Shown here piece by piece: positions 1 to 23,850 of a stretch of DNA of 24,000 bases (the stretch's first letter is position 1; each line of letters begins with the position of its first letter). The notes under the pieces were generated by a model. It ran no database searches, was not told the origin of the DNA, and saw only the letters and a list, made by a program, of their open reading frames with translations. Origin of the DNA: Helcococcus kunzii ATCC 51366 (GTDB lineage Bacteria; Bacillota; Clostridia; Tissierellales; Peptoniphilaceae); contig NZ_JH601088.1 of the NCBI RefSeq assembly GCF_000245755.1, positions 1,426,535-1,450,534 on the forward strand, in the 5' to 3' direction. Both the position numbers and the translations under genes were made by a program.

Positions 1-3000
1 TTTAGTCCAGGGATTATACGAATGTTCTTTTTCTTAGCATATGCTAAAATTTCATCCATTTCGCTTTGAGTTAATGCTTTTTCTGCATCTTCAGTCAATC
101 CTTTTCTCTTAGCATAGTTTTGATTTCCTAGTTTTATACCTTCTTTTACTTTTTCACTTTCGTATATTGCTTTATTTGTCTTAATAGTCATGTCATCCAA
201 TAGGAATCTCATGCCATCATTTCCAAATAAAATTTGTAGATGAGTATAACCTTCTTTACTCAATTTATCAATAATATTAATGATATTTTGTTTTGAATAG
301 TATTTTCTACCAGCATCTAAACTCATTATTCTTGAGTTTTTAATTAGTTCATTTTTTTCTGGAACATTTTCATCAGCTACCTTATCATCAACAACTACAA
401 TTGCTCTAGCAGTTAATGATGTGTCATTTGGTAATTTAACTTGAGCCACAGTTCTATAATTTTGTGGTTTTGAACCATCATAATCTTCTTCAAATGACCA
501 TGTTACCTCCACAGTGAATGGTTCACCCTTTGATGGTGTAACTTTTATTGATTTTGGTAATTTAGCTAAAGCTTCTTTTTCGCTTGATCCAAATTTTACA
601 TGAACATTTTCTACAGTTTCAATGTCATAAATAATTCCTTCATCAACTTCTTTTTTATATGAAAGATTTAACACATTACTTACATTTAGATTTTCTAATT
701 TACTTGTGTAGTATAGCTTTCCACTATTGCCTTTAAGTTCTACATCTTTAATAATTGCAACACCTTGATCATTTAACGTTGTTGTAGCGATTGGTTTTGC
801 TTCTTTATTAGTTGTAGGATTTTCTTTATATACATTTAATGTTGCTTTAGCTTCCCCATTTGAGAATGTTAAAGTAAATTTACCATCTTCTTGCTCGAAA
901 GCTTGAGCATTATTCATTGGAACATTAACTGTATCTTCCTTAACTGTTTCATACATACGCCAGTTATAGATACGCACACCACCCCAAGGTGATCCATTAT
1001 CTTTCTTGATAATTTCTAATTTCCAATCTTGAGCTATTATTGGTTTTTCAAAAACACCATCTGTTACATGTTCTCTATTATTTTGTACATGAACTGCTTC
1101 TTTATATTGACCGTCTTTATCTTTATAGTAAATCTTAAATTCTCTCGTATTCATCTTACGGTCATCAACACTTTCACCACCTGCACCAGCATGATCGATA
1201 CCCCAAGATGCAATTGTACGAGGTTTGTCTAATCTAACTTCTGCTTCTGTTTCCCTTGGATAGTACCATTTATCTGCAGTATTATTAATTGTACCAGTAA
1301 GAATGTTTTCTGGTCCTTCAGCATTATATTTTGGTGCATTAAGAATTTTTGCTAAAGGCATAATATTTACTGGTTGTGGTTTAGCTTCAGTAGTATCTGA
1401 GACTTCCATATTCCAATTAAATTTTTCTACTAACTCTTCTGAACGTACGCCATTTTCACCAACTGCCACTACCTTAATATCACTTAAAGTACCATTTGAG
1501 TCAGCATCTCTTTTAACTTTTGGTAAGAATATATAATTTGATGAGCTTGCATTTATGATTTCCCATTTACCATTTAATTTATGATAAACTTCATAAGTTT
1601 TAGCACCTTCCACCTTATCTACATGAATAAGAGCTTCTGCAGCTAATGAACTCATATATGAAACTTTATCTACATATACCTTGCTTGGTTTTGCAGGTTT
1701 ATTTGTATTGTCATAAATAGATAAATGACCAAAGTTAAGTCCAGTCTTATCTTTTTCATTTCCTGTAAGTTTCACACTAATTGCATAAATAGTTTGTCCC
1801 TTTAATGAGGATAAATCTACTTCAACTTCTCCCCATACATTTTTTACTTCAACAGGGAAATATTTAACTTCTTTATAGTCTTTGCTTGTGTGAACGCCCA
1901 ATTCAACTTTTGCATCTCCAGTTTGGTGCATTGCAACTTTAGCTTTTGTTGTTTCAGTCGCTTTTGCTTCCATTGAGTATAGTTGAATTGTTGTATTTTT
2001 ATCTTTAGCAAGTTTTCCTTCAAATTTCAATGATGTACCACCATTGTATGCATCATCAAAATCGTAACGTGCTGTTATTTCATTTCCTTCTTCGTTATTA
2101 ATAATCCAACGCCATGTTGGCATAACATCTTGTACAGAACGTCCATTCCATTCTTCATCTAATGATTTTCTACCATTAATAAACCAGTGACGTCCATGTC
2201 CTGTGTTAAAGTCTGTACTAAATGGTAATGATAAAATCGGTGTCTTATCTGCTACAAATCTTGCAATACCAGACCAAGCTTGTTTATCATCTGCATTTGC
2301 AGGATTATTTGTATGGCCAACCCAGAATTTTTGTTCTTCATTGTGATAATCTTCACCATCTTTTGACATCCCGATAATTGTATCTGGCACGAAAAGACCT
2401 AGTGAAGCTACTGTCTTTTTATCTCCACCTATAAATTCACCTTTTCTTTGGTGAGTTCTATATGCTCCACCTTTTTGAAGTTCAAGACCCATATATGCAT
2501 CAAATCTATCTAGGCCATTTTTTTCAAATTGTTTACCAGGACCTGCAGCATCTCCCCAACTAAAATCTGCAAAGAACATATCACTTGGGAAGTTTCCTTG
2601 TCCATCTGTTTGAAATAATTCTGGATTTCTAGATAGTCTTCCTCCTCCATCGTACCAAATCATTTCAATTGGATAGTTAATAGATTTAGCATATTTCTTT
2701 AAATGCAACAAGAAATCTCTAAATGATTGTGATGTACTTGATTCTTGATTGATAAAGTATCCATCAAAACCGTAATATTTCGCAATTTCAACTAATTTTT
2801 CAGCAACTGGATATGTGCCGTCTTGTCTTTTTTGTAAAACTTTTCTCGCCATATCCCCATTACTTCCCCAGTTAAAGAATATAGTTCCATACATTGGTAC
2901 ACCATTTCTATGAGCTGCGTCAGTAACTTCTGGATTCGGAATCAAACCATCCCAAAATACCATTTTGTCTAATAGTTGCCAATGGTCAAAAGCATACACT

Positions 3001-3386
3001 TTATAGCCTTGACCACCTCCACCAACTGCAGAATGTAGTGGTGAACCAGAGCTTAGATATGCTAATGACATAACTTTTGCATCTGGATTAGCTAATGGGT
3101 TTAACACTGTACCCATATGTCTTTCTTTTAAAGGTACAACTGATTTATGAATTTCATCATAAATATCATCTTGTGGAGTCCAATTAATAATTTTATCTAA
3201 ATCGATTTTCTTATCTCTTGGACGAATAGATACAGCTTGCTTTGAAACCTCCGCCTCAGTTGGAATGCTCTTTTTCACATTCACCACTTCTTCTTGACTA
3301 TTTTCAGCATGAACCGATGTATTATTAAACGGCATTGAGCTGAAAACTAAAATAAATGCCAATAAAAAACTTATAATTTTTTTCAT
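1..3386 (-). CDS. Secreted multidomain N-glycan glycosidase whose C-terminus runs off the window: signal peptide + GH85 endo-beta-N-acetylglucosaminidase (EndoD-like) + beta-sandwich/F5-F8-type-C-like modules + start of a GH20 beta-N-acetylhexosaminidase (StrH-like) domain
   Basis: The ORF is absent from the ORF track because it has no stop inside the window. Hand translation of the minus strand from ATG 3386..3384 (RBS AAGGAGG at 3397..3391) stays open to position 3. The N-terminus MKKIISFLLAFILVFSSMPFNNTSVHA/EN reads as a signal peptide. AKYYGFDGYFINQES (codon GCG at 2783..2781, in frame with 3386) matches the GH85 catalytic N-x-E region. WYYPRETEAEVRLDKPRTIASWGIDHAGAGG...NTREFKIYYKDKDG looks discoidin/CBM32-like. 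The last ~110 codons (SLDAGRKYYS..GYTHLQILFGNDGMRFLLDDMTIKTN..LTQSEMDEILAYAKKKNIRIIPGL) resemble the start of the StrH-type GH20 catalytic domain. Confidence 0.85.
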   Translation of the reverse strand, partial: MKKIISFLLAFILVFSSMPFNNTSVHAENSQEEVVNVKKSIPTEAEVSKQAVSIRPRDKKIDLDKIINWTPQDDIYDEIHKSVVPLKERHMGTVLNPLANPDAKVMSLAYLSSGSPLHSAVGGGGQGYKVYAFDHWQLLDKMVFWDGLIPNPEVTDAAHRNGVPMYGTIFFNWGSNGDMARKVLQKRQDGTYPVAEKLVEIAKYYGFDGYFINQESSTSQSFRDFLLHLKKYAKSINYPIEMIWYDGGGRLSRNPELFQTDGQGNFPSDMFFADFSWGDAAGPGKQFEKNGLDRFDAYMGLELQKGGAYRTHQRKGEFIGGDKKTVASLGLFVPDTIIGMSKDGEDYHNEEQKFWVGHTNNPANADDKQAWSGIARFVADKTPILSLPFSTDFNTGHGRHWFINGRKSLDEEWNGRSVQDVMPTWRWIINNEEGNEITARYDFDDAYNGGTSLKFEGKLAKDKNTTIQLYSMEAKATETTKAKVAMHQTGDAKVELGVHTSKDYKEVKYFPVEVKNVWGEVEVDLSSLKGQTIYAISVKLTGNEKDKTGLNFGHLSIYDNTNKPAKPSKVYVDKVSYMSSLAAEALIHVDKVEGAKTYEVYHKLNGKWEIINASSSNYIFLPKVKRDADSNGTLSDIKVVAVGENGVRSEELVEKFNWNMEVSDTTEAKPQPVNIMPLAKILNAPKYNAEGPENILTGTINNTADKWYYPRETEAEVRLDKPRTIASWGIDHAGAGGESVDDRKMNTREFKIYYKDKDGQYKEAVHVQNNREHVTDGVFEKPIIAQDWKLEIIKKDNGSPWGGVRIYNWRMYETVKEDTVNVPMNNAQAFEQEDGKFTLTFSNGEAKATLNVYKENPTTNKEAKPIATTTLNDQGVAIIKDVELKGNSGKLYYTSKLENLNVSNVLNLSYKKEVDEGIIYDIETVENVHVKFGSSEKEALAKLPKSIKVTPSKGEPFTVEVTWSFEEDYDGSKPQNYRTVAQVKLPNDTSLTARAIVVVDDKVADENVPEKNELIKNSRIMSLDAGRKYYSKQNIINIIDKLSKEGYTHLQILFGNDGMRFLLDDMTIKTNKAIYESEKVKEGIKLGNQNYAKRKGLTEDAEKALTQSEMDEILAYAKKKNIRIIPGL

Positions 3387-8871: not shown

Positions 8872-8968
8872 AATTCCCCTCTTTGAAAAAGGCTGAGCAA
8901 ATGCCCAGCCTATGATTTTACACAATTTATACTCAAGACAGCTCTTCTATAAATTGTTTATTTATATT

Positions 8969-12152: not shown

Positions 12153-12175
12153 TATTATAATTTGTGTATAAGGAC

Positions 12176-12596: not shown

Positions 12597-12643
12597 TTCC
12601 CACAAAAACTTCCAATACCCATTCTAAAAATTAAATCATTTTC

Positions 12644-13591
12644 CTATTGTCTATCTGAATGTATTGACAGTGCCCCTATTAAATTGGCGTCATTTCTATA
12701 TTTACATGTGACAACTTCCGGTTTGCTAAATGGGATGAATGGTATTTTGCCCCAAAGCTTGTCTACATGTTTTCTAATTATTTCGGTGACTTCTTTTCTT
12801 TCGCTTATTCCGCCACCTATTGCAATTTTTTCTACATCGAGAATGCTTTGTATGGTATAAATGCCTGTTGCTGCCAAACTTCCAAATCTATCTAAAGCTT
12901 TTATTGCTTCTTCTTCATTGTTATCGTAGGCTTCAAAGAATTCAATGCCATTTACATCTGCTATAACTTTTCCTGATTTTAGCATTTCATCTTTGTATAT
13001 GTTTATTAGACCTGTTGTTGAAAAGGAGCTTGCCATAAAAGGGCTCAACTGTCCTGTTTTGTCAGCACCAAGGATTGAGATTTCTTCCATATTGGCTAAT
13101 TTTTCGAAATTGGAAACTATATGTGAAAGTTCACCAGACCCGAAAGAATTTCCCATTCTCACTTTGCCATCTAGGATTACTCCACCGCCCGTACCGGTTC
13201 CGAGAACTATTACTACTCCATCTTTTACATCTGATAATGCACCACTCCACGCTTCCGCTTTAGCTGCACATTTTGCATCATTTGCAATGGTGATTGGAAC
13301 ATCTAAATGTTCATTTAGTTTTGCGACAATTGGAAAGTCTTTTACAAACATGTACACACCAAGTGTGTGAGCGATACCTTTATCTGTATCTATCCTACCT
13401 GGTAATGATATGGCTATTGAATCAATGATATCTTCATATTTTTTACACAGATCTACTAGGGAATCAACTACTTCTGTTTTAGATTTATAATTTGAAGGAA
13501 GTTTCCCTTTTTCTAAAAATTTGCCATTTTCATTCATAAGTGCATATTTGGTATATGTGCCACCAACGTCCAAAACTAAATACTTTTTCAT
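12644..13591 (-). CDS. ROK-family sugar kinase (BglK / GlcNAc-kinase-like, no Cys-rich zinc motif)
   Basis: KYLVLDVGGTYTKYAL is the N-terminal ATPase phosphate-1 motif, and VIVLGTGTGGGVILDGKVRMGNSFGSGELSH is the ROK signature region. The RBS is GGAGAG. It is the last gene of the operon. Confidence 0.8.
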   Translation of the reverse strand: MKKYLVLDVGGTYTKYALMNENGKFLEKGKLPSNYKSKTEVVDSLVDLCKKYEDIIDSIAISLPGRIDTDKGIAHTLGVYMFVKDFPIVAKLNEHLDVPITIANDAKCAAKAEAWSGALSDVKDGVVIVLGTGTGGGVILDGKVRMGNSFGSGELSHIVSNFEKLANMEEISILGADKTGQLSPFMASSFSTTGLINIYKDEMLKSGKVIADVNGIEFFEAYDNNEEEAIKALDRFGSLAATGIYTIQSILDVEKIAIGGGISERKEVTEIIRKHVDKLWGKIPFIPFSKPEVVTCKYRNDANLIGALSIHSDRQ

Positions 13592-13612
13592 TATGCTCTC
13601 CTACTTTATTAA

Positions 13613-14362
13613 TTATTTATTTGATTTTACCGCAGTGATGAATCTTTCCGCTATTTCTGGATCTACATCAATATATGTATTTTCTGAATCTTTAAATATT
13701 GAATAGTTTATTTTATTTTTTGTTGTAATGTCTTCATAATTTTTCTTACAAGAACTATGGACATATTGAGCGTTTGTAGATTTTAACAGTTCAACCACAT
13801 TGTCAGGATTTATTCCAGAACCCAAAATTATCTCAATTTTATTTTCATATTTTTGAACAAGTTCTTTAATTAAATCTGTATTTTCCAATGCACTTGCTGT
13901 TTGCCCACTAGTTAATACCCTATCTACTTTCAATTCTATTAAATCTTCAATTGATTGGAATGGATCTTTTGTATTATCAAATGCTCTGTGGAATATTGCA
14001 ATCTTTCCAGCATTATGAATCTTCTCTACAAATATTTTCGTTTTTTCCTTATCTATTTCAAAATCTTCTGTTAAGAAACCAAAAACTATTCCGTCAATTT
14101 TTTCATTTAATAAAATATCCAATTCTTCTAACATTTCACTAAATTGATTATCAGTATAGCAAAAACCCGCAGCACGATTTCTAATCATACAATTCTTTTT
14201 GATATTGATATTTTCTGCAATTTTTCTCAATACACCAGGACTTGGAGTCAATCCGCCTAGACATAGTGCAGAATTGATTTCAACACTATCAAATCCTAAC
14301 TTTTCGGCTAATTTTGCGGCTTCATAGTTTTCAATACATAATTCGACTTTGACTTCATTCAT
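13613..14362 (-). CDS. cutC: CutC-family TIM-barrel protein
   Basis: VELCIENYEAAKLAEKLGFDSVEINSALCLGGLTPSPGVL matches the CutC N-terminal consensus (LEVC..s...A...GAdRiELcsaL..GGlTPS.G). The length of 249 aa fits, and the RBS is TGGAGGGAA. Confidence 0.75.
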   Translation of the reverse strand: MNEVKVELCIENYEAAKLAEKLGFDSVEINSALCLGGLTPSPGVLRKIAENINIKKNCMIRNRAAGFCYTDNQFSEMLEELDILLNEKIDGIVFGFLTEDFEIDKEKTKIFVEKIHNAGKIAIFHRAFDNTKDPFQSIEDLIELKVDRVLTSGQTASALENTDLIKELVQKYENKIEIILGSGINPDNVVELLKSTNAQYVHSSCKKNYEDITTKNKINYSIFKDSENTYIDVDPEIAERFITAVKSNK

Positions 14363-14404
14363 TGATTCCCTCCATTCACAATATAAATATTATCTATACT
14401 TCTA

Positions 14405-15526
14405 TTATACAATAATATCACCATCTTCAACTTGATTTAATTTATATATACCATAAGCGTAGATTTTCGCACATTTCACTAAATCATCGATATCCATCCA
14501 TTCGTTTGGTAAATGAGCGATTCCATTTTGGCCTGGAAATGATGGACCAAAAGGAATGACTGTCTTTATTTTATGCGCATAAGTCATACCTGTAGTTGTT
14601 GTTGGCTCGATTTCTTGACCTGTCGCTTCTATATATGCTTGATTTAGTAATTTCACATTTGTAGATTCTGGATTTTTAAGAGCAGCTTCTGTGTAATTTA
14701 TAAGGGAAACTTCTAAATCTTCAGCTTTTTCTTTTATTTTTTCTATAATTTTTTCAATGTCACATTCCCCCATTGAAAGTTGAAATCTTAGACTTTCTTT
14801 TGAATCTTCTGTAAATATTCTATATCCTCTAACTATTAGTTTTCCAAAATACTTATCTTCAAAATCTATACCAAGTCTTTTACCATTATTATCAGCATTT
14901 AGAATGTATTTGTTTAAGAATGTGTATAGTTTTTCTTTATCCCCTGAAACTTTAATATTTGCTCTTGCTCTTTCCCCATATATCGCTGGGAATTTGTTAT
15001 CCGGAACAAAACCAAGCACTGGTAGTTTCTCTTTAGACAAATAGTAGTCTATATCAGACATTCCGCTTTCTTCGTCTGCACCAAATACAATTCTTATTTC
15101 TCTCTTTGGTTTAATCTCTAGGTTTTTTAATGCAATAAGTCCATATAAAGCAGCAATTGCCGGCCCTTTATTATCTAACGCACCTCTTGAATACATTCTA
15201 TTTTCTATAATTTTTCCAGAAAAAGGTGGACAAATCCAATCATCCCAATCACCTTCTGGCACTACATCTAAATGTCCAAAAATTCCCATGTGTTCTTCTG
15301 AATCACCATATTTTGCATACGCCATATATCCATCAACATTTTTCATCGTAAAATTTTCTCTCTCACAAATTTGTAAAATTGCATCTAATACTTTTCTACA
15401 ATTCTCTCCAAAAGGTGCATTTTCTTTTGGAGATGATTTTACACTTGGGATATTAATTATCTTTACTAAATCCTCTATCATTTGGTCTTTAAGTCTATCT
15501 ATTTCAGCAAATAACTTTTTTTTCAT
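14405..15526 (-). CDS. M20-family metallopeptidase (PepV/Sapep-like dipeptidase, short form)
   Basis: GIFGHLDVVPEGDWDDWICPPF, YSRGALDNKGPAIAAL and VFGADEESG are the M20 metal-ligand and catalytic blocks. The start ATG overlaps the upstream stop by 1 nt (TAATG), and the RBS is GGAGGG. Confidence 0.8.
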   Translation of the reverse strand: MKKKLFAEIDRLKDQMIEDLVKIINIPSVKSSPKENAPFGENCRKVLDAILQICERENFTMKNVDGYMAYAKYGDSEEHMGIFGHLDVVPEGDWDDWICPPFSGKIIENRMYSRGALDNKGPAIAALYGLIALKNLEIKPKREIRIVFGADEESGMSDIDYYLSKEKLPVLGFVPDNKFPAIYGERARANIKVSGDKEKLYTFLNKYILNADNNGKRLGIDFEDKYFGKLIVRGYRIFTEDSKESLRFQLSMGECDIEKIIEKIKEKAEDLEVSLINYTEAALKNPESTNVKLLNQAYIEATGQEIEPTTTTGMTYAHKIKTVIPFGPSFPGQNGIAHLPNEWMDIDDLVKCAKIYAYGIYKLNQVEDGDIIV

Positions 15527-16575
15527 TATCCCTCCACGATTTTATTAAAACTTTCTCTATTTGTATTTTTTATAATCAATTCTACTAGTTTAATACATTC
15601 CTCTATATCTGATTTATGGACAATACTATGATTTGTATGCATATATCTTATAGGGATGGAAAGTGATAAGTTAACAACTCCTTTTAACGTCTTATGAATG
15701 TTTCCTGAATCAGTACCACCTCTATTAAAAACTGCATACTGATATTTTATCCCATTATTTTCACATAAATCTTCTATCCATCTCATCAATCCTCTATGAG
15801 CTATGCTATTTGAATCAATAAAAGATAAAACGACTCCACCGCCTAATTTCACAATATTTTCATCAAATGGTGTATCCCCTGCAACGATAGTATCAATTGC
15901 AATTCCAATATCTGGCTCAATCATATGTGTTGAAGTCCTTGCTCCTCTAAGTCCTGGCTCTTCTTGTACAGTAAATGCCCAATAAAGCTCGCAATCGGAT
16001 TTAATATCTTTTTTCAAAGTTTCCAAACCAACAAAACATGAGACCCTATCATCAAAAGCTTTATTTAACAATGTTTTCCCAAATCCTAATTCAGAAAATT
16101 GAGATACAGGAGTGACCATATCTCCAATTTGAATATTCGCCCTTTTTATCTCTTCAGCATCCATTCCTAAATCTAGATACATTTTATCCTTAGGAATGGT
16201 CTTCTCTCTTTCCTTTGGATCTATCATATTATGTGATGAGGGACTGGAAATAACGCCTAAATATTGTTTGTTGTCTCTCGTTGTAAGTGTATAAAGTTGT
16301 CCAACTACTAAATGAGGCCATAAACTTCCTAGCATTCTAAGTTTTAAGAAATTATCTTCAATACTTTCGACTATAAAGCCAACCTCGTCCATATGTGTTG
16401 CGAACATCAGCTTAATCGCATTTTCATCTTTCTTTTTATCATCATATGCAATTATACTGCCGATACCATCATAAAAATAATTTGAAACTTCTTTCTCTAT
16501 CAAATCAGAAACCGACTTTTCAAATGAGGAAACCCCATTAATTGAAGATAATCTATTTAGTAAATCTAAATCCAT
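15526..16575 (-). CDS. M42-family aminopeptidase (FrvX/YsdC/TET type), catalytic residues intact
   Basis: All canonical M42 blocks are present: FATHMDEVGFIV, KAFDDRVS, FTVQEEPGLRGA, GIAIDT and IRYMHTNHS. The start abuts the upstream stop (TAAATG), and the RBS is GGGAGAGA. Confidence 0.85.
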   Translation of the reverse strand: MDLDLLNRLSSINGVSSFEKSVSDLIEKEVSNYFYDGIGSIIAYDDKKKDENAIKLMFATHMDEVGFIVESIEDNFLKLRMLGSLWPHLVVGQLYTLTTRDNKQYLGVISSPSSHNMIDPKEREKTIPKDKMYLDLGMDAEEIKRANIQIGDMVTPVSQFSELGFGKTLLNKAFDDRVSCFVGLETLKKDIKSDCELYWAFTVQEEPGLRGARTSTHMIEPDIGIAIDTIVAGDTPFDENIVKLGGGVVLSFIDSNSIAHRGLMRWIEDLCENNGIKYQYAVFNRGGTDSGNIHKTLKGVVNLSLSIPIRYMHTNHSIVHKSDIEECIKLVELIIKNTNRESFNKIVEG

Positions 16576-17577
16576 TTATCTCTCCCTTCTTATCAAATTA
16601 CTAATATTCTCATCTTCAATAAGCTTCAATAGAAATGTTTCTAACTTTTCAATATCGTTTTTAGAAACAATAACACTTGATGTTCCCATATTTTTCATTG
16701 GTATACCGACGGAAAGTGTTGGTACCCCCGCTAAAGTTTTATGAATAAATGAACCATCATTTCCTAAAACCCCCACATATGGTTTAGTTTCATATCTTTC
16801 TGTAATATACCTCAATAGATTTTGGTCTGGTATCATCTTTGAATCATAATATCCAACAATAACGCCATCTCCTAATTCTATCTTTGGATTTGAATTATTT
16901 ACTTCAAATCCTGTCACTACTATTGCCAAATCTGGCTCAACTACATGGTTTGCAGTTTTTGTGCCTCTAAAACCAATGGTGGATTGAGCAATCGCACCAA
17001 TGTAGAAATTATTATTTAATTTCCTTTCTTTAATTTTTTCAAGTATCTTTATACTCAAATATTGTGGTATTTTTTGAGTTAAACTCCTTCCAATAATATT
17101 ATTTTCCGTTTCTATTAACTCAGACTCTAGCGCAATTAAATCACCTATATTTAATTTTGTGTCGTCAAATGTTTCGACATATAAATCCTCTAACTTAATA
17201 GTTGAGATTTTTTCTTCTAATATTTTCTTATTTATTGTGATAAACCCACTAATATTCTCATTATCTCTAGTTGTGATGTTTACTCTTTGATGCAATAAAG
17301 ATGCTGGAGATAAATCTTCTAAAGTTAAAAAGTTTGCATGATTATCTTTATCAACAGCGCTAACTATTAATCCTATTTCATCCATTGCACATGCAATCAT
17401 TATTTTTTTTCTATTTTCTGGATTTTCAACTAATCTTTTCGCAAATATAGAATAAAGTCTATCTTCTACAATTTCATCAGAATATTTTTTATACCTTTCT
17501 TTTAAGTAAGTATTTAGTTTCTTTTCACAACTTGAAACAGAGTAAATGTCATATATTTCCCTTAACTCATCAAACAT
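16576..17577 (-). CDS. M42-family paralog with all metal-ligand/catalytic positions substituted (probable pseudo-peptidase)
   Basis: It is collinear with the neighbouring M42, but the aligned blocks read CAMDEIGLIV (H to A), RSLTQKIP (DDR to TQK), AIAQSTIGFRGT (EE to QS), AIVVTG (D lost) and MKNMGTSSV (H lost). I moved the start to ATG 17577 (RBS TTGGAGG). The track's start at 17589 is a TTG inside that RBS. Confidence 0.8.
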   Translation of the reverse strand: MFDELREIYDIYSVSSCEKKLNTYLKERYKKYSDEIVEDRLYSIFAKRLVENPENRKKIMIACAMDEIGLIVSAVDKDNHANFLTLEDLSPASLLHQRVNITTRDNENISGFITINKKILEEKISTIKLEDLYVETFDDTKLNIGDLIALESELIETENNIIGRSLTQKIPQYLSIKILEKIKERKLNNNFYIGAIAQSTIGFRGTKTANHVVEPDLAIVVTGFEVNNSNPKIELGDGVIVGYYDSKMIPDQNLLRYITERYETKPYVGVLGNDGSFIHKTLAGVPTLSVGIPMKNMGTSSVIVSKNDIEKLETFLLKLIEDENISNLIRRER

Positions 17578-17598
17578 ATTAACCTCCAATTATAATGA

Positions 17599-17621
17599 AA
17601 GCTGCTATAAAATAGCAGCTT
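17599..17621 (-). other. Intra-operon stem-loop between the GrdB-like and M42 genes
   Basis: AAGCTGCTAT (17599-17608) / ATAGCAGCTT (17612-17621) is a perfect 10-bp palindrome that is GC-rich for this region. It begins 4 nt after the TAA stop at 17628..17626. Only a weak U-tract (TTTCATTAT) follows on the minus strand. Confidence 0.45.
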
Positions 17622-17625
17622 AACA

Positions 17626-18150
17626 TTAATAACATATTTTCTTTTCTAGTTCAGATAGCTCTTCGCTATTTTCGTGTTTTAACTTCATCCATTTTATTAA
17701 ATCTTCAAATGAATCGCTTAATCCAACTCCACCTTTTTTAGGCATTTTTATAATGGAAATTTTATCCTTAAATTCAGCGATTGTTTCAGCATTATCATCT
17801 GACATCATTGTAACAACTGGAATATCAGTTGTTTTGGATATATTATCAGTTAATTCGGCACACATTTTTGCATAATCGATAAAGTTAAAGCAAGGTCCAC
17901 AAACTACCATATCTGGATTAATCTTTTTAACCATTGCTGTCATTTTATCTATTACTTCTTGCTCATTATTTAAGAAATACTGATTTCCGCAATATAATGT
18001 AGCAAAAACTTTAGCATCTATCTTATCAAAATGTGGCTGTAGCATAAGAGCTGATCCTATCCCACCTTTAGCTATTTGTAATCCTACATTAGGATTACTC
18101 TTACCACCGGCACCAGCTAAACCTTGATCGAAAATTAATACTACTTTCAT
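17626..18150 (-). CDS. Stand-alone protein resembling the N-terminal domain of glycine/sarcosine/betaine/D-proline reductase protein B (GrdB/PrdB family)
   Basis: MKVVLIFDQGLAGAGGKSNP...ATLYCGNQYFLNNEQEVIDKMTAMVKKINPDMVVCGPCFNFIDYAKMCAELTDNI parallels my recollection of the GrdB N-terminus (VVHYINQFF.GIGGEEKA ... VVCGD.YF.EN.DEA...I..MI....PD....GPAFNAGRYG.ACG). It is only 174 aa and ends at a TAA. The RBS is AGGAGAA. Confidence 0.55.
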   Translation of the reverse strand: MKVVLIFDQGLAGAGGKSNPNVGLQIAKGGIGSALMLQPHFDKIDAKVFATLYCGNQYFLNNEQEVIDKMTAMVKKINPDMVVCGPCFNFIDYAKMCAELTDNISKTTDIPVVTMMSDDNAETIAEFKDKISIIKMPKKGGVGLSDSFEDLIKWMKLKHENSEELSELEKKICY

Positions 18151-18180
18151 AATTAACTTCTCCTTTTTTACACATTAATT

Positions 18181-19533
18181 CTATAAATCATCAAAAGATA
18201 AATCGTCAAATGATAAATCATCGATTTCATCTTCTTTGTCTTTTTGTAGACGTTCTTCGTCAAGATATTTCTTATCCAATAATTTTAGGAATGGATAATA
18301 TATCAACATATTTATCGCTAAAAGTGCAAATTGAACAATAACAGCGTTGAATGATCCGGTTACCAGATAACCAGAGAATCCAATCGGTGTTGTCCATGGT
18401 AACTGTACCCCGGTTGTGATTGGCATAAATCCGACCATAGTTGCTAACATTGCAAGTACGGTATTTACAACTGGTGTTAATATAAATGGAATAATCATAA
18501 TTGGATTAAGCACTATTGGTAAACCAAAGATAATTGGTTCATTGATACCAAATATACCTGCAGGTAATGATAATCTACCTAACATCTTAATTCTATTTGA
18601 TTTTCCTAAAAACGCCATCATAATTACTAAACCAAGTGTTGATCCACCACCACCAAAGTTACAGAAGAAATCACTAAATCCAGCTGTAAATATATTTGTC
18701 ATTTCTAAACCAGCTTTTGCAGCTTCATAGTTTTCTAAAGTAAGCGCTTTATGTATTGGTGCAAATATTGTATTTGTTACAGCAGGTCCGTTGATTCCAA
18801 AGAACCAGAATAGTGTTGATAAGAATTGATAAATTACTTCAAATGCTGGGTTCTTACCTAAACCAACAAGTGGAGCTTGCAATACTTCATAAATAAAGTT
18901 GTGAGCATATTCGTATGATGTCTTACTAAATAGTATATTTAATACGAAGAAAAATACCATTACAAACGCCGCAGGTATCAACGCTGCAAATGAGTCCATA
19001 ACTGCAGGTGGTACCCCTTCTGGCAATTTGATAACAAGTTTTCTCTTAAACGCCCAATTAAAAATTCTAACTGAAATAATTGCTATTATCATAGATAGGA
19101 ACATTCCAGCTGTCCCTAAATTCCCAAATGAGAAACCTCTAAAAGCATTTTCTGCTTCATTTATAAAAGCTGGATGAGTTTGTGGAGTAATAATTAAAAA
19201 TGATACAAGTGAGATTACTGCTGCACCTATATTATTTGTCATTTTTAATTCTTTAGAGTAACAATACGCTATTGATAATGAAGCTAGTAATGCCACACAG
19301 TCAAATGCTATACCATATACTCTTCCTAAAAACGCATCCCATCCTTCACCAAATATTCCAGCCATAAATTCTGGATATCCCGCGATTGGGAAATTTGCAA
19401 CTAATAAGAATATTGATCCAACAATTACTATTGGAACTGTTACTAAGAATCCATCTCTAATCGCACTTAATACTTTATTTTTTGAAAGCGCATTAGCTAT
19501 TGGACCTAAGATTTTATCCATTTTTTCTAACAT
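18181..19533 (-). CDS. PTS EIIC, lactose/cellobiose/chitobiose (Lac) family, with acidic C-terminal repeat tail
   Basis: A 450-aa polytopic protein with the typical Lac-family EIIC N-terminus (LEKMDKILGPIANALSKNKVLSAIRDGF) and a GINGP-type block. It is flanked by EIIB and EIIA of the same family. The tail reads EDEIDDLSFDDLSFDDL. Confidence 0.85.
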   Translation of the reverse strand: MLEKMDKILGPIANALSKNKVLSAIRDGFLVTVPIVIVGSIFLLVANFPIAGYPEFMAGIFGEGWDAFLGRVYGIAFDCVALLASLSIAYCYSKELKMTNNIGAAVISLVSFLIITPQTHPAFINEAENAFRGFSFGNLGTAGMFLSMIIAIISVRIFNWAFKRKLVIKLPEGVPPAVMDSFAALIPAAFVMVFFFVLNILFSKTSYEYAHNFIYEVLQAPLVGLGKNPAFEVIYQFLSTLFWFFGINGPAVTNTIFAPIHKALTLENYEAAKAGLEMTNIFTAGFSDFFCNFGGGGSTLGLVIMMAFLGKSNRIKMLGRLSLPAGIFGINEPIIFGLPIVLNPIMIIPFILTPVVNTVLAMLATMVGFMPITTGVQLPWTTPIGFSGYLVTGSFNAVIVQFALLAINMLIYYPFLKLLDKKYLDEERLQKDKEDEIDDLSFDDLSFDDL

Positions 19534-19534
19534 A

Positions 19535-19855
19535 CTATCTTCCTTTCTTTAATTCAAATAAGGCTTTTTTCAGCACTCTTTCGCCATTCATAGTACCATA
19601 ATCTTCGGTATCTATTACCATAATAGGTTTACCTAAGTCCCCATATTTATCTTTTACTTTTTCATAAATATGTTTTACTTGAGGTCCCAATAAAATAACA
19701 TCTGGGTTTAATTTTGTAATAATTTCATCCATTTTACCTTGTGAATAAGCCTTAACTTCAATAGGTAAACTATTTTCGTCTGCCACTTTTTGCATTCTTT
19801 GTGCCAATAAGCTTGTAGACATCCCATTATCACAAAATAGATAGAATTTTTTCAT
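19535..19855 (-). CDS. PTS EIIB, lactose/cellobiose family
   Basis: KFYLFCDNGMSTSLLAQRMQ contains the phosphorylatable Cys in the CxxGxSTS context. I moved the start to ATG 19855 (RBS GGGAGAA 8 nt upstream). The stop lies 1 nt before the EIIC ATG. Confidence 0.85.
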   Translation of the reverse strand: MKKFYLFCDNGMSTSLLAQRMQKVADENSLPIEVKAYSQGKMDEIITKLNPDVILLGPQVKHIYEKVKDKYGDLGKPIMVIDTEDYGTMNGERVLKKALFELKKGR

Positions 19856-19923
19856 AGCCATTTCTCCCTTCTTCATATATTTAGGTTTTTTAAGGCAACC
19901 TATAATCCTTTAATACGCTTAGT

Positions 19924-20502
19924 TTATAGTATTTCTTTCACATAAGTAGAAAACATTTTATCTTGTAATGTTTGATTTCTTTTTTTATCTCGAATGGACA
20001 TAATTACAGATATGCCAATAAGGATAAACATCGGTATTGCAATTATCTTATCAATTTTTTCTACATTTTCTATTGAAAGAATTCTTAAAATCGTCCTTAA
20101 AATCACATTAAATGAGCTAAATAGTATCCCTTGAAGTATAAAACAACCAATGAAAAATCGCTTAAATAATGTTAAAAATTGTGGTTTTGTATTATCTTCG
20201 TTTAAAATCTCAATCCTAACAGCTTTCATCATCAATGTTTGAGCTCTTTTTGATTTATAAGGAATGTACACATAATAAATAAAAGCTACAATTAAAGGAA
20301 CGATGATAGATATAATATTGGTCACATTATCATGTTTTACAATATTGCCCATTTTATCTGATTTATTAGTCCAAATAAAAACTAATCTCATAAATAGATT
20401 TAATAATACTGATGAAAAATACCAATCAACAGCAAAGGCAAATACTCTTTTTACAAAATATCCCGCCCTATTTTCCGATTTTACTGTTGTTATTTTTTTC
20501 AT
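19924..20502 (-). CDS. RDD-family small membrane protein
   Basis: AGYFVKRVFAFAVDWYFSSVLLNLF carries the R and first D, and the C-terminal QTLQDKMFSTYV carries the second D. There are 3-4 TM segments. The start overlaps the EIIA stop (ATGA, 20502-20499). Confidence 0.65.
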   Translation of the reverse strand: MKKITTVKSENRAGYFVKRVFAFAVDWYFSSVLLNLFMRLVFIWTNKSDKMGNIVKHDNVTNIISIIVPLIVAFIYYVYIPYKSKRAQTLMMKAVRIEILNEDNTKPQFLTLFKRFFIGCFILQGILFSSFNVILRTILRILSIENVEKIDKIIAIPMFILIGISVIMSIRDKKRNQTLQDKMFSTYVKEIL

Positions 20503-20816
20503 TTTAGATCCTTGACTAATTTTAATATACTTATATTTTCTTCACATATTAATCTAAAATTATCTGCCGCCATTAGCTGATCTTCAGCATGCATCAATAT
20601 CAAACTAAAATCTATTTTTTCACCATTTGTTTCCTTATATATTAATTCAGAATGTGCTTCATGCGCTTTTAGATATTCTTTTTTTCCCTCTTCGATTAGT
20701 TCTTCTGCTTTTTCAAAATCAAATTTTCTTGCATATCTCATAGCCTCAATATAACTTGATTTTGCAGCCCCTGAAGAGGATATTATCTGAAAGCAAATCA
20801 TTTCAATATTTTCCAT
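20499..20816 (-). CDS. PTS EIIA, lactose/cellobiose family
   Basis: A 105-aa all-helical small protein. SLILMHAEDQLMAAD contains the conserved phospho-His context of EIIA(Lac/Cel). The RBS is AAGGGGTGAAA. Confidence 0.85.
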   Translation of the reverse strand: MENIEMICFQIISSSGAAKSSYIEAMRYARKFDFEKAEELIEEGKKEYLKAHEAHSELIYKETNGEKIDFSLILMHAEDQLMAADNFRLICEENISILKLVKDLK

Positions 20817-20840
20817 TTCTCATTTCACCCCTTTATATTT

Positions 20841-21809
20841 CTAAAGTAATTTAAGTTCTGCGGTACGAGTTTTCATATATTCGTCTAACCATTCTTGAGA
20901 AGCTTCATAATGAATGCTTTTATCATCTTCTCTTTTTGTCAAATACACTTTAGGTGCATGATTTTCAGATGCATATACAAATGAAAATCCTTCGATATTG
21001 GTTGAAACACCATATTCACCTTTGTTATTAATAGCAACTACAGATAAATCTCCCGCTTTTCCTCTTAATTTAATTAGTTTTTTTTCTAAATCTGAAACAG
21101 CTTTATCACACGCTTGCTGAGGAGTTAAACCTTCAGACATCAATCTAACAATTTCATAAGAGATACAACCTTTCATTAAGTCTTCACCTAATCCAGTTGC
21201 ACTTGCGCCACCAATTTCAGAATCTGCATAAAATCCTGATCCAATAACTGGACTATCTCCGACTCTTCCTTTTTTCTTCATAAAAAGCCCAGATGTTGAA
21301 GTACCTACAGATATTTTATTGTTTGTATCTAAGCAAACAACTCCAACTGTATCATGTCCGATATATGGTTTTAATTCTGATTCTTCCTGTTTTATTCTAT
21401 CTTCCTTCACTCTATTTTTGTAATGTATGATAGCTCTATCGGTTAGCATATTTTTTCTTTCAAAACCCGCCTTATGTGCATATCTCTCTGCTCCATCTCC
21501 CACTAAAAAACAATTTACTTTTTCATCAGAAAGTTTTCTAGCAATAGAAATAGGATTACTAAAATCCCTAATACCAGCAATCGCACCAATATTGAAATTA
21601 TTTCCGTCCATAAAACCAGCATCCATTTCTACTTCCATGTCTTCATTAGGTAATCCACCATAACCAACTGATTTAAAAAATGGAAAATCTTCTACATCTT
21701 TTATAATATTTTCAACAATTTCTCCTGAATCTTCTCCCTCTTTTAAGCATTTATAATTATTTTCAATGCCTTCTAAGGACATTCTCCAGGTACCAATTAC
21801 TGCCCACAT
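20841..21809 (-). CDS. Cytoplasmic N4-(beta-N-acetylglucosaminyl)-L-asparaginase (glycosylasparaginase, Ntn hydrolase)
   Basis: It is collinear with human/Flavobacterium-type glycosylasparaginase: VIGTW (cf. VVNTW), SVGYGGLPNEDMEVEMDAGFMDG (cf. SVGFGGSPDE...LDAMIMDG), the autoprocessing site GHD|TVGVV, GRVGDSPVIGSGFYAD, GASATGLGEDLM and FSFVYASEN. There is no signal peptide. The RBS is AGGAGGA. It is the first gene of the operon. Confidence 0.85.
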   Translation of the reverse strand: MWAVIGTWRMSLEGIENNYKCLKEGEDSGEIVENIIKDVEDFPFFKSVGYGGLPNEDMEVEMDAGFMDGNNFNIGAIAGIRDFSNPISIARKLSDEKVNCFLVGDGAERYAHKAGFERKNMLTDRAIIHYKNRVKEDRIKQEESELKPYIGHDTVGVVCLDTNNKISVGTSTSGLFMKKKGRVGDSPVIGSGFYADSEIGGASATGLGEDLMKGCISYEIVRLMSEGLTPQQACDKAVSDLEKKLIKLRGKAGDLSVVAINNKGEYGVSTNIEGFSFVYASENHAPKVYLTKREDDKSIHYEASQEWLDEYMKTRTAELKLL

Positions 21810-21847
21810 TTTATCCTCCTAAATCCTAACTATACCTCTCTGATTTA

Positions 21848-21876
21848 AACTTAACAAACAACCATATATATTTCAA
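21848..21876 (-). promoter_or_regulatory. Candidate activator-dependent promoter of the PTS/glycosylasparaginase operon
   Basis: On the minus strand: -35 TTGAAA (21876..21871), a 17-nt spacer, and a weak -10 TAAGTT (21853..21848). It lies about 40 nt upstream of the ATG at 21809. Confidence 0.35.
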
Positions 21877-21886
21877 AGATATCCTT

Positions 21887-21902
21887 TTCCTATAGTTAGG
21901 AA
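21887..21902. promoter_or_regulatory. Palindrome TTCCTA-TAGT-TAGGAA upstream of the operon -35 (candidate binding site of the PRD activator)
   Basis: The 6-bp arms are exact reverse complements, 10 bp upstream of the putative -35. Its core TATAGTTAGGA (21891-21901) recurs inverted as TCCTAACTATA at 21824-21834, just upstream of the operon RBS. Confidence 0.35.
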
Positions 21903-21911
21903 ATTCAGATA

Positions 21912-21940
21912 TTACCATTCTTGAAAATGTCTGATATAAT
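21912..21940 (+). promoter_or_regulatory. Candidate promoter of the regulator gene (extended -10)
   Basis: -35 TTACCA (21912-21917), a 17-nt spacer, and TG-n-TATAAT (TG 21932-21933, TATAAT 21935-21940). This would leave a very short leader before the RBS GGAGG (21948-21952), which lowers confidence. Confidence 0.35.
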
Positions 21941-21957
21941 CATAATTGGAGGTTTCT

Positions 21958-23850
21958 ATGACAAATAGACAAAACCAAATAATTCAATTGCTTATGGATA
22001 ATAAATGGATTACGGGGTCTAACCTTTCTATCATTTTAGGAGTTTCAGATAGAACAATACGTTCAGACATTAAAAATATCAATAATAAATTAGGTTATAC
22101 TTTAATACATTCAGACAATAGATTGGGTTATAAAATTAAAGACAAAAATATAAAATTGACTTCAAATAAGAAAATAGCGGAAACACCATATGAAAGAAAA
22201 TTATACATTCTAAAAAAATTACTTCTTCATAAAGGTGAAATAGACATCTATGATGATATTATCGATGAATTATTTGTAAGTGACGCCACTTTATTAAATG
22301 ATATTAGTGATATAAACAAAGATCTTTACGAATACAAAAAAATTTCAATCAGTAAGAATGGTTCAAAAATACAAATTATCGGCGATGAAAAGTGCATTCG
22401 TAGATTATATAAGGATTTGCTAATTAAAGAAACGGAAAATAATTTATTTAACATAAATCAAATTGCCTTACTTTACAAAAATTTCGACTTAATAGAGATG
22501 AAAAATATTTTGGAAAAACTTCTCGAAGAATATAACTATATAATTGATGAAGTTGCATTCCCTATTTTAATGATTCATTTGGGGGTCAGCATTGATAGGA
22601 TAATTTCCAAAAACACTTTAGACATCATTGAATCAAATAATGAAATTAAAAATAGTGTAGAATATTTAATTTCAAAGAAGTTTTTTGGTGAAATCAATAA
22701 ACGTTTTAGCATAGATTCAGACGAAGCAGAGGTCGCCCTATTTGCAAAAACTCTTATGAGTAAAAATAGAAACTATTCTAGAGATTTATCCAATATTACA
22801 GAATATAAGATCATAGTTAAAGACCTATTAAAATATATCTATGAAGATTATGGCATTAATTTCTTATCCGATGAAGAATTAATAAACAGCTTATGCGTCC
22901 ACATAGAAGCTTTGATTGCCAGGATTAAGCTAAATGCTCCAACCACAAATCTCTTCTTGGACGAAATAAAAAAAAGATATCCATTCGTTTTTGAATTAGC
23001 CCTAATCAGTGCACATTATTTAAATGAAAAGCTTGATGTGATCATCACAGAAGAAGAAATAGGATTTTTATGCCTACATTTGGGCACGGCATACGAAAGA
23101 AATTACATGCACAAATATAGAGTGCTACTGATTTCTCCTCAAATAAACATAATTAACAATAAATTAGAAGACAATATCAATAAATTCTTTAATAACAAAT
23201 TAGAAATTGTTGACAAACTAAACTATTTCGAAGAAAATGCGGTACTAAAGATTAATCCGGATATAATAATATCAAACACACAAATTTATCATTCGTTAGA
23301 CATTCCTACAATATTTGTATCACCCTTCTTTTTACCCGAAGATGAATCAAATATATTGCAAACAATCAATGCCTTGGATAATAAACGATTAAAGAAAGAA
23401 TACAGTAAATACCTTGACGAAATATTAAGTAGTGAAAATTTCTACACCAGAATGGACTTTGACAGCAAAGAAGATGCCATCAAATTTTTATGCGATAAAC
23501 TAGTGGAAAAAGGCAATATCACCAACAATTACTATAGCAGTGTAATAAATAGAGAAAAAATGTCCACAACATCATTTTCTCAAGGATTTGCCATTCCTCA
23601 CAGCATTGATACAGATGATATCATCAAATCAAGCATCTCCGTCCTTATTTTAGATAACCCCATCGATTGGGGAAATTACAGAGTGCAAATAATATTTTTA
23701 CTAACCATAAAAAATATCAACAGCCCCGCACTAAAACTATTCTTCAATTGGATGGACGTCATCGCCTCCGACGTAGGCAAATTCTCAAAATACTTAACAT
23801 GCAAGTCATTTGAAGAATTTATAGATATTTTTGATAATGACAATAATTAA
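21958..23850 (+). CDS. PRD-domain transcriptional activator of the LicR/MtlR/ManR type (HTH + 2 PRD + EIIB-like + EIIA(Mtl/Fru)-like)
   Basis: The N-terminal HTH is NRQNQIIQLLMDNKWITGSNLSIILGVSDRTIRSDIKNIN. PRD-type conserved His contexts are present (ILMIHLGVSIDRI, SLCVHIEALIARI, FLCLHLGTAYER). The C-terminal EIIA-2 domain has GFAIPHS. There is no sigma-54 AAA+ module. I moved the start to ATG 21958 (RBS GGAGG). The track's start at 21946 is a TTG. Confidence 0.85.
   Translation: MTNRQNQIIQLLMDNKWITGSNLSIILGVSDRTIRSDIKNINNKLGYTLIHSDNRLGYKIKDKNIKLTSNKKIAETPYERKLYILKKLLLHKGEIDIYDDIIDELFVSDATLLNDISDINKDLYEYKKISISKNGSKIQIIGDEKCIRRLYKDLLIKETENNLFNINQIALLYKNFDLIEMKNILEKLLEEYNYIIDEVAFPILMIHLGVSIDRIISKNTLDIIESNNEIKNSVEYLISKKFFGEINKRFSIDSDEAEVALFAKTLMSKNRNYSRDLSNITEYKIIVKDLLKYIYEDYGINFLSDEELINSLCVHIEALIARIKLNAPTTNLFLDEIKKRYPFVFELALISAHYLNEKLDVIITEEEIGFLCLHLGTAYERNYMHKYRVLLISPQINIINNKLEDNINKFFNNKLEIVDKLNYFEENAVLKINPDIIISNTQIYHSLDIPTIFVSPFFLPEDESNILQTINALDNKRLKKEYSKYLDEILSSENFYTRMDFDSKEDAIKFLCDKLVEKGNITNNYYSSVINREKMSTTSFSQGFAIPHSIDTDDIIKSSISVLILDNPIDWGNYRVQIIFLLTIKNINSPALKLFFNWMDVIASDVGKFSKYLTCKSFEEFIDIFDNDNN

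Follow-up and report, generated by a model that had tools for sequence, protein, structure and literature searches.

GlcNAc-Asn (N-acetylglucosaminyl-asparagine) is the universal stub of N-glycoprotein breakdown, left by endo-N-acetylglucosaminidases and proteases, and its consumption by bacteria has been worked out only recently, in Lacticaseibacillus casei and Enterococcus faecalis. Here we analyse an eleven-gene operon of Helcococcus kunzii ATCC 51366, contained in a stretch of 24,000 nucleotides (contig NZ_JH601088.1, positions 1,426,535 to 1,450,534; hereafter the window), which encodes a phosphotransferase system (PTS) of the lactose/cellobiose (Lac/Cel) family together with a predicted cytoplasmic glycosylasparaginase and peptidases. 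The operon is likely to serve the PTS-dependent use of GlcNAc-Asn, and probably of very short GlcNAc-Asn peptides as well.

Comparison with described systems

The closest described system is the ega (enterococcal glycosylasparaginase) locus of E. faecalis, reported by Combret et al. 2023 (Res Microbiol 2024;175:104169), in which, as a citing paper describes it (PMC11160706), the asparaginase EgaG is encoded with a Lac/Cel EIIB and EIIC, a GrdB-like "putative oxidoreductase", a GntR regulator and a dipeptidase. A second paper, from the same group, speaks of a "GlcNAc-L-Asn PTS" in this species and reports that CelA1, an EIIA of the cellobiose family, is needed for GlcNAc-L-Asn too (PMC11976118). 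E. faecalis was represented in our comparison by E. gilvus, E. raffinosus, E. thailandicus and E. gallinarum, and no entry named E. faecalis was found among the best 120 matches to the E. gilvus asparaginase. The loci of these species and of Latilactobacillus curvatus, taken from annotated megaplasmids and chromosomes, are laid out as follows:

E. gilvus, E. raffinosus: GntR (LSA1692 subfamily), Sapep dipeptidase, asparaginase, IIB, IIC, IIA
E. thailandicus: GntR, M20, asparaginase, IIB, IIC
Latilactobacillus curvatus: asparaginase, GntR, GrdB family, IIC, Sapep dipeptidase
E. gallinarum: YitT, GntR, M20, asparaginase, IIC, GrdB-like, M42, M42

A GntR gene is present in all of these enterococcal and L. 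curvatus loci (L081, L082, L090, L091 and L094), and their products are 55-58% (asparaginase), 45-55% (EIIC), 40% (EIIB), 39% (GrdB-like) and 32-40% (M20) identical to those of the window. As in ega, the window asparaginase lies in the same transcription unit as a Lac/Cel EIIB and EIIC and is linked to an M20 dipeptidase of the Sapep/PepV type, and a GrdB-like gene without selenocysteine (NF041545, over its cutoff) adjoins the EIIC gene. The E. gallinarum locus, which is of the ega layout, also carries a pair of M42 genes, the first of them degenerate. The differences are that ega has a GntR (LSA1692-type) repressor, whereas the window has a PRD activator and a TCCTA-N4-TAGGA palindrome; that E. 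faecalis borrows the EIIA CelA1 from its cel locus, whereas the window has an EIIA of its own; and that the window adds RDD, CutC and ROK genes and has an M20 with a shortened lid.

Like the window, the alf-2 cluster of L. casei (AlfH, AlfC, AsnA2, PepV, AsdA, SugK; PMC6960285) encodes a self-processing glycosylasparaginase of the cytoplasm, has a gene for a PepV-type dipeptidase linked to it and provides a kinase for the freed GlcNAc; in alf-2 the 1-amino-GlcNAc is left to decay. That cluster differs in its major facilitator superfamily permease, fucosidase, aspartate decarboxylase and GntR-type regulator, and it lacks the GrdB-like protein, CutC, M42 and RDD, all of which are present in the window. 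The chb operon of Escherichia coli and other Lac/Cel PTS resemble the window in their EIIA/EIIB/EIIC family and in a disaccharide-sized substrate with beta-linked GlcNAc, and many of the Firmicute systems are under PRD-regulator control; they differ in carrying a 6-phospho-beta-glycosidase (of glycoside hydrolase (GH) families GH1, GH4 or GH170), where the window has an amidase and peptidases. The Salmonella fra locus for fructose-asparagine follows a logic like that of the window, importing a sugar-Asn conjugate and using a cytoplasmic asparaginase-type amidase and a kinase, but it handles an Amadori compound through a non-PTS transporter and with unrelated enzymes. Finally, the Xanthomonas nix cluster and N-glycan clusters of Cytophagales have CutC after or beside a glycosylasparaginase, with ROK and nagB genes nearby; in the Cytophagales, unlike the window, the asparaginase is exported by Tat and lies in a cluster of exo-glycosidases (GH92, GH2) with no PTS.

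A preliminary description of the window, made from its sequence, had proposed a Lac/Chb PTS feeding a cytoplasmic glycosylasparaginase and peptidases, and had considered that none of the known analogues used a Lac-family PTS, a GrdB-like component or M42 proteins. Since the published ega locus already combines a Lac/Cel PTS, a GrdB-like protein and a dipeptidase, the claim that no analogue has a Lac-family PTS or GrdB-like component is out of date, and M42 genes are not new to such loci either, E. gallinarum already carrying a pair. The proposal is thus right in substance but not new, its principle having been published in 2023, and what marks the window as a variant of its own is the PRD activator, together with a dedicated EIIA, RDD, CutC, ROK and the pairing of an inactive with an active M42.

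Gene organization of the operon

Eleven open reading frames, all on the minus strand and in the same direction, run from 21809 to 12644, and the PRD activator gene is divergent from them. The features of the window are, in operon order:

21946..23850, plus strand: PRD activator of LicR/MtlR type (Pfam: HTH_11-Mga-PRD-PRD-EIIA_2), divergent from the operon
21888..21901, strand not applicable: palindrome TCCTATAGTTAGGA (TCCTA-N4-TAGGA), from sequence reading
21829..21857, minus strand: promoter-like site TTGTTA, 17 nt, TATAGT, followed by AGGAGG and ATG (consensus match only)
20841..21809, minus strand: predicted glycosylasparaginase, cytoplasmic Ntn hydrolase (Pfam Asparaginase_2, 231 bits; PDB alignment)
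20499..20816, minus strand: PTS EIIA, lactose/cellobiose family (PTS_IIA; His76 in LMHAEDQLM motif)
19924..20502, minus strand: small membrane protein of the RDD family (Pfam RDD)
19535..19876, minus strand: PTS EIIB, lactose/cellobiose family (PTS_IIB; Cys15 in FCDNGMSTS motif)
18181..19533, minus strand: PTS EIIC, lactose/cellobiose/chitobiose family (PTS_EIIC; TIGR00410)
17626..18150, minus strand: GrdB-like protein without selenocysteine, 174 aa (NF041545; N-terminal GRDB part only)
16576..17589, minus strand: inactive M42 paralog, a predicted pseudo-peptidase (Peptidase_M42, weak, 122 bits)
15526..16575, minus strand: intact M42 (TET-type) aminopeptidase (Peptidase_M42, 275 bits)
14405..15526, minus strand: M20 dipeptidase, Sapep/PepV subfamily, short lid, 373 aa (TIGR01887)
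13613..14362, minus strand: CutC-family TIM-barrel protein (Pfam PF03932, 188 bits)
12644..13591, minus strand: ROK-family sugar kinase (Pfam ROK)
1..3386, minus strand: secreted GH85 endo-beta-N-acetylglucosaminidase, running off the window (Pfam; signal peptide)

The open reading frame listing gives the eleven co-directional genes and the divergent PRD gene at exactly the positions of the preliminary description, and Pfam and NCBIfam profile searches bear out every one of its domain calls. The tight packing that it reported also holds, but its maximum spacing of 68 nt does not: that figure depends on the choice of start codons, and with those of the listing neighbouring genes overlap by up to 4 nt or stand no more than 47 nt apart. 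As had been claimed, the profile searches found no glycoside hydrolase domain in the eleven genes, nor was the 6-phospho-beta-glycosidase or the deacetylase of a Lac/Chb operon detected among them.

Identity of the asparaginase

Compared with all solved structures, the window asparaginase has its best matches in the Elizabethkingia/Flavobacterium glycosylasparaginase (199 bits, E 1e-57), while isoaspartyl peptidases, plant-type asparaginases and taspase reach at most 131 bits. The alignment begins at query residue 4, equivalent to residue 7 of the mature Elizabethkingia/Flavobacterium enzyme, which leaves no room for a signal peptide, and the protein begins at the conserved core (MWAVIGTW...); the earlier view that it is collinear with true glycosylasparaginases and lacks a signal peptide is thereby upheld. 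Residues H152-D153-T154, T172, R182, D185, T205 and G206 align with the Elizabethkingia enzyme and are invariant in 13 homologs; by this alignment T154 would be the nucleophile and HD/T the site of autoprocessing, and T172, R182, D185, T205 and G206 would bind the Asp moiety. In addition, W8 is conserved and aligns with the sugar-stacking Trp11 of the aromatic GlcNAc-binding pair of the Flavobacterium enzyme, whose other member, Phe13, has Met10 as its counterpart. The closest database entry is a 98%-identical H. kunzii protein, named N(4)-(beta-GlcNAc)-L-asparaginase by NCBI. Judged from these alignments, the window protein most likely belongs to the cytoplasmic glycosylasparaginase class (EC 3.5.1.26, Ntn hydrolase).

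One could also speculate that the enzyme is an isoaspartyl (beta-aspartyl) peptidase, in an operon that recovers aspartyl peptides which are damaged or beta-linked and whose PTS handles some other substrate. The only NCBIfam match of the asparaginase is indeed to beta-aspartyl-peptidase, some homologs carry the JGI name isoaspartyl peptidase, and the operon holds three peptidase genes. The NCBIfam match, however, has 128 bits, far under the cutoff of 567 bits, and the solved glycosylasparaginases score about 70 bits above the isoaspartyl peptidases, with the sugar-stacking Trp aligned. Moreover, glycosylasparaginase activity has been shown for the Lactobacillales relative AsnA2 of L. casei (PMC6960285), and the E. 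faecalis locus is described as a glycosylasparaginase locus in PMC11160706, so that we regard an isoaspartyl peptidase as highly improbable.

AsnA2 is itself a cytoplasmic homolog. It cleaves GlcNAc-Asn and accepts a substituent at O6, including a 6-fucosylated substrate; enzymes of its class require a free alpha-amino and a free alpha-carboxyl group on the Asn, which would explain the peptidases in the operon; pepV genes are linked to asnA2 homologs; and 1-amino-GlcNAc, which the reaction yields, cannot be metabolised but breaks down on its own under acid conditions (all PMC6960285).

Conservation of the gene cluster

Linkage was surveyed in one genome per species by searching with an asparaginase alignment. 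From the species loci found, at least 477 in number, the best 80 were retained together with 10 kb of DNA on either side, 56 well-flanked Bacillota loci were used for counts, and the presence of components was scored by tblastn with the window proteins. The dominant module consists of a PRD regulator, (RDD), IIA, IIB, IIC, GrdB-like protein, asparaginase, M20 and CutC. M20 was found in 53/56 loci, CutC in 49/56, EIIC in 46/56, the GrdB-like protein in 44/56 (in every case alongside EIIC), the PRD regulator in 38/56, M42 in 7/56 and ROK in 1/56. Conservation of the linkage in related genomes, set beforehand as a refutation test, was found in dozens of Bacillota species. RDD homologs, searched with a better query, occur in 44/80 loci, mostly immediately upstream of IIA, and the RDD protein is a recurrent companion of the module.

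In gene order, the locus of Anaerococcus degeneri (L053) comes closest to the window. In a metagenomic relative whose asparaginase is 89% identical, the order is asparaginase, IIA, RDD, IIB, IIC, GrdB-like, M20 and CutC with a divergent PRD regulator, and both the M42 pair and ROK are missing from the operon; another asparaginase, 76% identical, occurs by itself in a different gene context. Ten loci have asparaginase, M20 and CutC without a PTS, the trio forming a stand-alone operon in Beduini massiliensis. Because of the low counts for M42 and ROK and their absence from the near relative, we rejected both as core components, although they had been presented as integral parts: the conserved core is transporter, GrdB-like protein, asparaginase, M20 and CutC, and M42 and ROK are accessories in this genome. 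The asparaginase is accompanied most regularly by CutC and M20, not by M42, a point that the preliminary description had overlooked.

Two further genes recur near the module. In 48/80 loci (for example L025 12804-13664, L026, L027 and L090 3937-4779) the gene right after CutC encodes a YitT/DUF2179 membrane protein, with 62-83% identity between loci; the window has none. It occurs also in loci with asparaginase, M20 and CutC but no PTS, and may transport the substrate in place of a PTS. Downstream of the module, 2/80 loci, those of Clostridium neonatale (L025 13679-14629) and A. degeneri (L053, about 17276), encode a DUF7916 protein (441 bits).

Transporter and GrdB-like protein

EIIC belongs to the lacE subfamily (TIGR00410, 380 bits against a cutoff of 236), and the phosphorylation motifs of EIIB (Cys15, CDNGMSTS) and EIIA (His76, MHAEDQLM) are both present. 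All matches of the EII proteins to the NCBIfam equivalog models for cellobiose, lactose and chitobiose lie under the cutoffs of those models. EIIC, EIIB and the GrdB-like protein of the window subtype are 42-50% identical to those of the commonest module. Unrelated Lac-family EIICs in the surveyed loci are 31-36% identical to the window EIIC by tblastn, against the 45-55% of the enterococcal and L. curvatus EIICs. From homology, the EIIC is presumed to be the permease for GlcNAc-Asn.

An ordinary chitobiose, cellobiose or beta-glucoside PTS operon, with the amidase and peptidase genes as unrelated passengers, would account for the fact that EIIC, EIIB and EIIA score best with cellobiose, lactose and chitobiose family models, and for the roughly equal scores of ROK with BglK, NagK and glucokinase models. 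It would leave unexplained why the operon has no 6-phospho-beta-glycosidase or other glycosidase, why the EII proteins fall short of every equivalog cutoff, and why EIIC lies beside the asparaginase, with M20 and CutC, in so large a share of the loci and in many genera; furthermore, the corresponding E. faecalis transporter is described as a GlcNAc-L-Asn PTS in PMC11976118. We therefore give this explanation scarcely any credence.

The GrdB-like protein matches NF041545 ("GrdB_like_no_Se", a GrdB-related putative oxidoreductase without Se) with 240 bits against a cutoff of 175, and covers positions 2-161 of the 347 of the GRDB profile. The selenocysteine-bearing C-terminal half of the approximately 430-aa GrdB is not present in its 174 aa, and the GrdB, GrdF and GrdH models score far under their cutoffs. 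In the homolog alignment the motifs FDQGLAGAGGK and ATLYCG are invariant, and of the CxxC motif CGPC the first Cys is invariant and the second is found in at least 90% of sequences. Its AlphaFold model (pLDDT 91) has a Rossmann-like alpha/beta fold. No sequence relative was found among the solved structures in the PDB, and the Foldseek matches there, microcystinase C as the best and then Rab GTPases, were rejected as homologs, being generic Rossmann/P-loop-like hits with TM scores below 0.5. A kinship with EIIB(Lac) was likewise rejected, the hhalign match being insignificant (23% probability over 24 columns). Given that it never occurs without EIIC in these loci and that CGPC is conserved, the GrdB-like protein may be a previously unrecognised accessory subunit of the PTS. 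According to PMC11160706 its gene is a pseudogene in E. faecalis OG1RF, and the protein is therefore perhaps dispensable.

Some further observations concern this protein. It has a short local stretch, NPDxVxxGP, in common with EIIB(Lac) (KINPDMVVCGP and KLNPDVILLGP, respectively). In L. curvatus the GrdB-like gene stands at the position expected for EIIB, in a locus that has no EIIB. A database entry (P0089) is called a GRDB+Asparaginase_2 fusion, which is probably a gene-calling artefact of adjacent genes.

Peptidases

The downstream M42 protein (15526-16575) has every ligand of the two-metal site as well as the catalytic Glu (H, D, D, E, E, D, H), whereas in the upstream copy (16576-17589) all metal ligands and the catalytic Glu are gone, the positions being A, T/Q, S, T, a gap and G. 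The upstream protein is a member of the M42 fold family that, with these residues, cannot be a metallopeptidase, and the earlier term "degenerate" turns out to be an understatement. In eight of nine M42 pairs the upstream copy is short of some or all metal ligands while the downstream copy is intact: all residues are lost in the window, L005, L010, L038, L039 and L053, most in L057 and L060, and three in E. gallinarum (L090). In the ninth pair, L046, the upstream copy is truncated by the contig end and keeps its visible ligands. M42 enzymes are dodecamers, and a conserved inactive copy directly upstream of an intact one therefore points to a mixed particle; the sequences thus suggest that the pair forms a hetero-oligomeric TET particle with non-catalytic subunits, in the few loci that have M42 at all. 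The preliminary idea that such a system could also explain why M42 peptidases of the FrvX/SgcX/YpdE type are linked to PTS operons gained no support from these results.

The M20 protein, the most constant partner of the asparaginase, exceeds the cutoff of TIGR01887 with 326 bits and belongs to the Sapep/PepV subfamily. Its description as an M20 dipeptidase-like protein is right as to the family and needs one correction: the PDB alignment shows it to be about 95 residues shorter than PepV and Sapep, with part of the lid absent.

CutC and the ROK kinase

The CutC family, human CUTC included, has been annotated for decades as "copper homeostasis protein". The PDB relatives of the window protein are 3iwp and 1twd; of the Cys pair proposed to bind Cu(I) in human CUTC, the first aligns (C9) and the second falls on Asn30. 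CutC follows asparaginase and M20 in the Bacillota loci, and it lies immediately downstream of the asparaginase in 4/5 Bacteroidota (Cytophagales) plasmid loci (L083 7909-8664; L088 5974-6747; L089 5906-6631; L093 4406-5122), twice with a 4-nt overlap, and GH92, GH2, ROK and nagB genes lie around. In Xanthomonas citri, cutC (XAC3091) adjoins the asparaginase gene XAC3092 by the nix N-glycan cluster, as noted in the literature. The linkage of CutC and asparaginase thus spans three phyla, as represented by Bacillota, Bacteroidota and Xanthomonas.

The Cytophagales asparaginase carries a Tat signal and the CutC does not, and this arrangement of an exported asparaginase with a cytoplasmic CutC suggests that CutC handles a product of the asparaginase and not copper. 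As a tentative and rather doubtful proposal, the CutC family could be the missing enzyme of N-glycan core catabolism, converting 1-amino-GlcNAc(-6P) to GlcNAc(-6P) and ammonium at neutral cytoplasmic pH. Such a role is speculative; it is permitted by the linkage to the asparaginase and by the reported non-metabolisability of 1-amino-GlcNAc (PMC6960285). In the literature searched we found no functional link between CutC and glycosylasparaginase, solely the adjacency notes in Xanthomonas.

The ROK protein scores about 120 bits with each of the NCBIfam glucokinase, BglK and NagK models, under their cutoffs.

Regulation

Within the 136 nt between the divergent genes are the promoter-like site and, about 30 nt before its -35 hexamer, the palindrome TCCTATAGTTAGGA, 79-92 nt ahead of the asparaginase ATG. 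Across 1.5 Mb of related loci TCCTA-N4-TAGGA occurs as an exact match 31 times, where our own base-composition estimate predicts about 1.4 occurrences. In at least 20 species the palindrome is found 74-87 nt upstream of the first gene of the module unit, which is mostly IIA and, in M42-type loci, the asparaginase or the RDD unit. The GntR-type loci L081 and L082 lack it. The regulator found beside the module is 33-40% identical to that of the window, which has only sub-threshold matches in NCBIfam. By its position and distribution, TCCTA-N4-TAGGA fits a candidate binding site of the PRD activator.

Proposed pathway and its alternatives

The proposal of a PTS feeding a glycosylasparaginase and peptidases thus draws support from the enzyme match, with its margin over related families (199 against at most 131 bits) and with nucleophile, Asp-binding residues and Trp in place, and from the linkage in dozens of Bacillota species and the enterococcal loci that match the description of ega. 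In the pathway that we envisage, EIIA, EIIB and EIIC would import the glycoamino acid, as suggested by homology and the published GlcNAc-L-Asn PTS, and O6 of the GlcNAc would probably be phosphorylated, as PTS chemistry implies and as the tolerance of AsnA2 at O6 indirectly supports. The M20 peptidase, and here also M42 with its inactive partner, would trim flanking residues and so free the alpha groups of the Asn. The glycosylasparaginase, assigned to its class by sequence and with its substrate taken from homologs, would then cut the amide to give aspartate and 1-amino-GlcNAc(-6P), and this glycosylamine would decay or, more speculatively, be converted by CutC, to GlcNAc(-6P) and ammonium. 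By analogy with SugK of alf-2, the ROK kinase may rescue unphosphorylated sugar. The PRD activator, probably acting at TCCTA-N4-TAGGA upstream of the -35 hexamer, would turn the operon on under PTS control.

Several points weigh against this pathway. The case for the H. kunzii operon is built on sequence and on homologs, and the homology to ega rests on other enterococci with the layout described, not on E. faecalis sequences. The position of Phe13 in the sugar pocket of the Flavobacterium enzyme is Met10 in the window asparaginase, and this Met is invariant in the clade. Phosphorylation of GlcNAc-Asn by the PTS is assumed, and the ROK kinase would be needless if all sugar entered phosphorylated. 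Finally, the GrdB-like protein, RDD, CutC and the inactive M42 have no assigned step, and the true substrate could thus be a modified or larger glyco-amino acid.

This last point can be extended to a reading in which the substrate is another or larger glycosyl-amino compound (core-fucosylated GlcNAc-Asn, GlcNAc-Asn tri- or tetrapeptides, or another N-glycosyl amino acid) that needs the GrdB-like protein, CutC, RDD and the M42 pair, free GlcNAc-Asn being a side substrate. It would give work to four conserved proteins for which the simple pathway offers no step; the presence of M42 and M20 peptidases speaks for substrates that bear peptides; and the moderate identity of the EIIC, EIIB and GrdB-like protein to those of the commonest module points in the same direction, as does the acceptance of a 6-fucosylated substrate by AsnA2 (PMC6960285). 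Against this, the operon has no fucosidase or other glycosidase, and the near relative without M42 and ROK keeps the remaining operon. Lac-family EIICs, as a matter of general knowledge, carry solutes of di- or trisaccharide size. On balance we consider a larger substrate unlikely, and GlcNAc-Asn with its very short peptides remains the preferred substrate.

GH85 and other genes of the window

A secreted GH85 endo-beta-N-acetylglucosaminidase had been reported in the window, and its domain and Sec signal peptide MKKIISFLLAFILVFSSMPFNNTSVHA are both found in an open reading frame that extends from 3386 to the window edge. Its supposed link to the operon does not hold up: it lies 18 kb from the asparaginase with unrelated genes between, and in none of the 80 loci (0/80) was a GH85 found less than 10 kb from the asparaginase, so that we rejected GH85 as a conserved component of the system. 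It is nevertheless plausible that the window GH85 supplies GlcNAc-Asn stubs upstream. Beyond F5/8 type C and Big_4 domains, the GH85 protein reaches the window edge within the first part of a C-terminal GH20 hexosaminidase domain; if GH85 and GH20 are fused here, the protein would resemble the two-domain endoglycosidase-plus-GH20 design of E. faecalis EndoE.

The region 3657-10114 (minus strand) encodes a PAP2 phosphatase, a TMEM164-family membrane protein, a GDPD phosphodiesterase and an ABC transporter composed of a fused double permease, a PotA/PhnT-like ATPase and a PhnS/PotD-like binding protein. It looks like a system for scavenging phospholipid head groups or phosphonates, unrelated to the PTS operon. 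The ABC transporter (6075-10114) was considered as an N-glycan importer and rejected, its matches being of PhnS/PotD/iron type and its genes sitting with the GDPD phosphodiesterase.

No RNA families were found in the window by Rfam, and a terminator scan gave nothing convincing downstream of ROK. An array of eight units with a 52-nt period (12174-12610) fills the gap between a DUF2207 gene and the ROK gene; its units are imperfect palindromes, five of the form TAGCACCA...TGGTGCTA and three of the form TGGTACTAAAT...ATTTAGTACCA, and it has no Rfam match. These units could be terminators or a repeated extragenic element.

Implications

The analysis indicates that a PTS-based route for GlcNAc-Asn is widespread in gut and wound-associated Bacillota. 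It also points to regulation of a second kind, by a PRD activator and a conserved palindrome, and to a constant catabolic core of asparaginase, short-lid M20 and CutC. The main remaining value of the locus lies in placing conserved components in a defined pathway, above all CutC, but also the GrdB-like protein, RDD, YitT and the M42 pair, each of which is directly testable.

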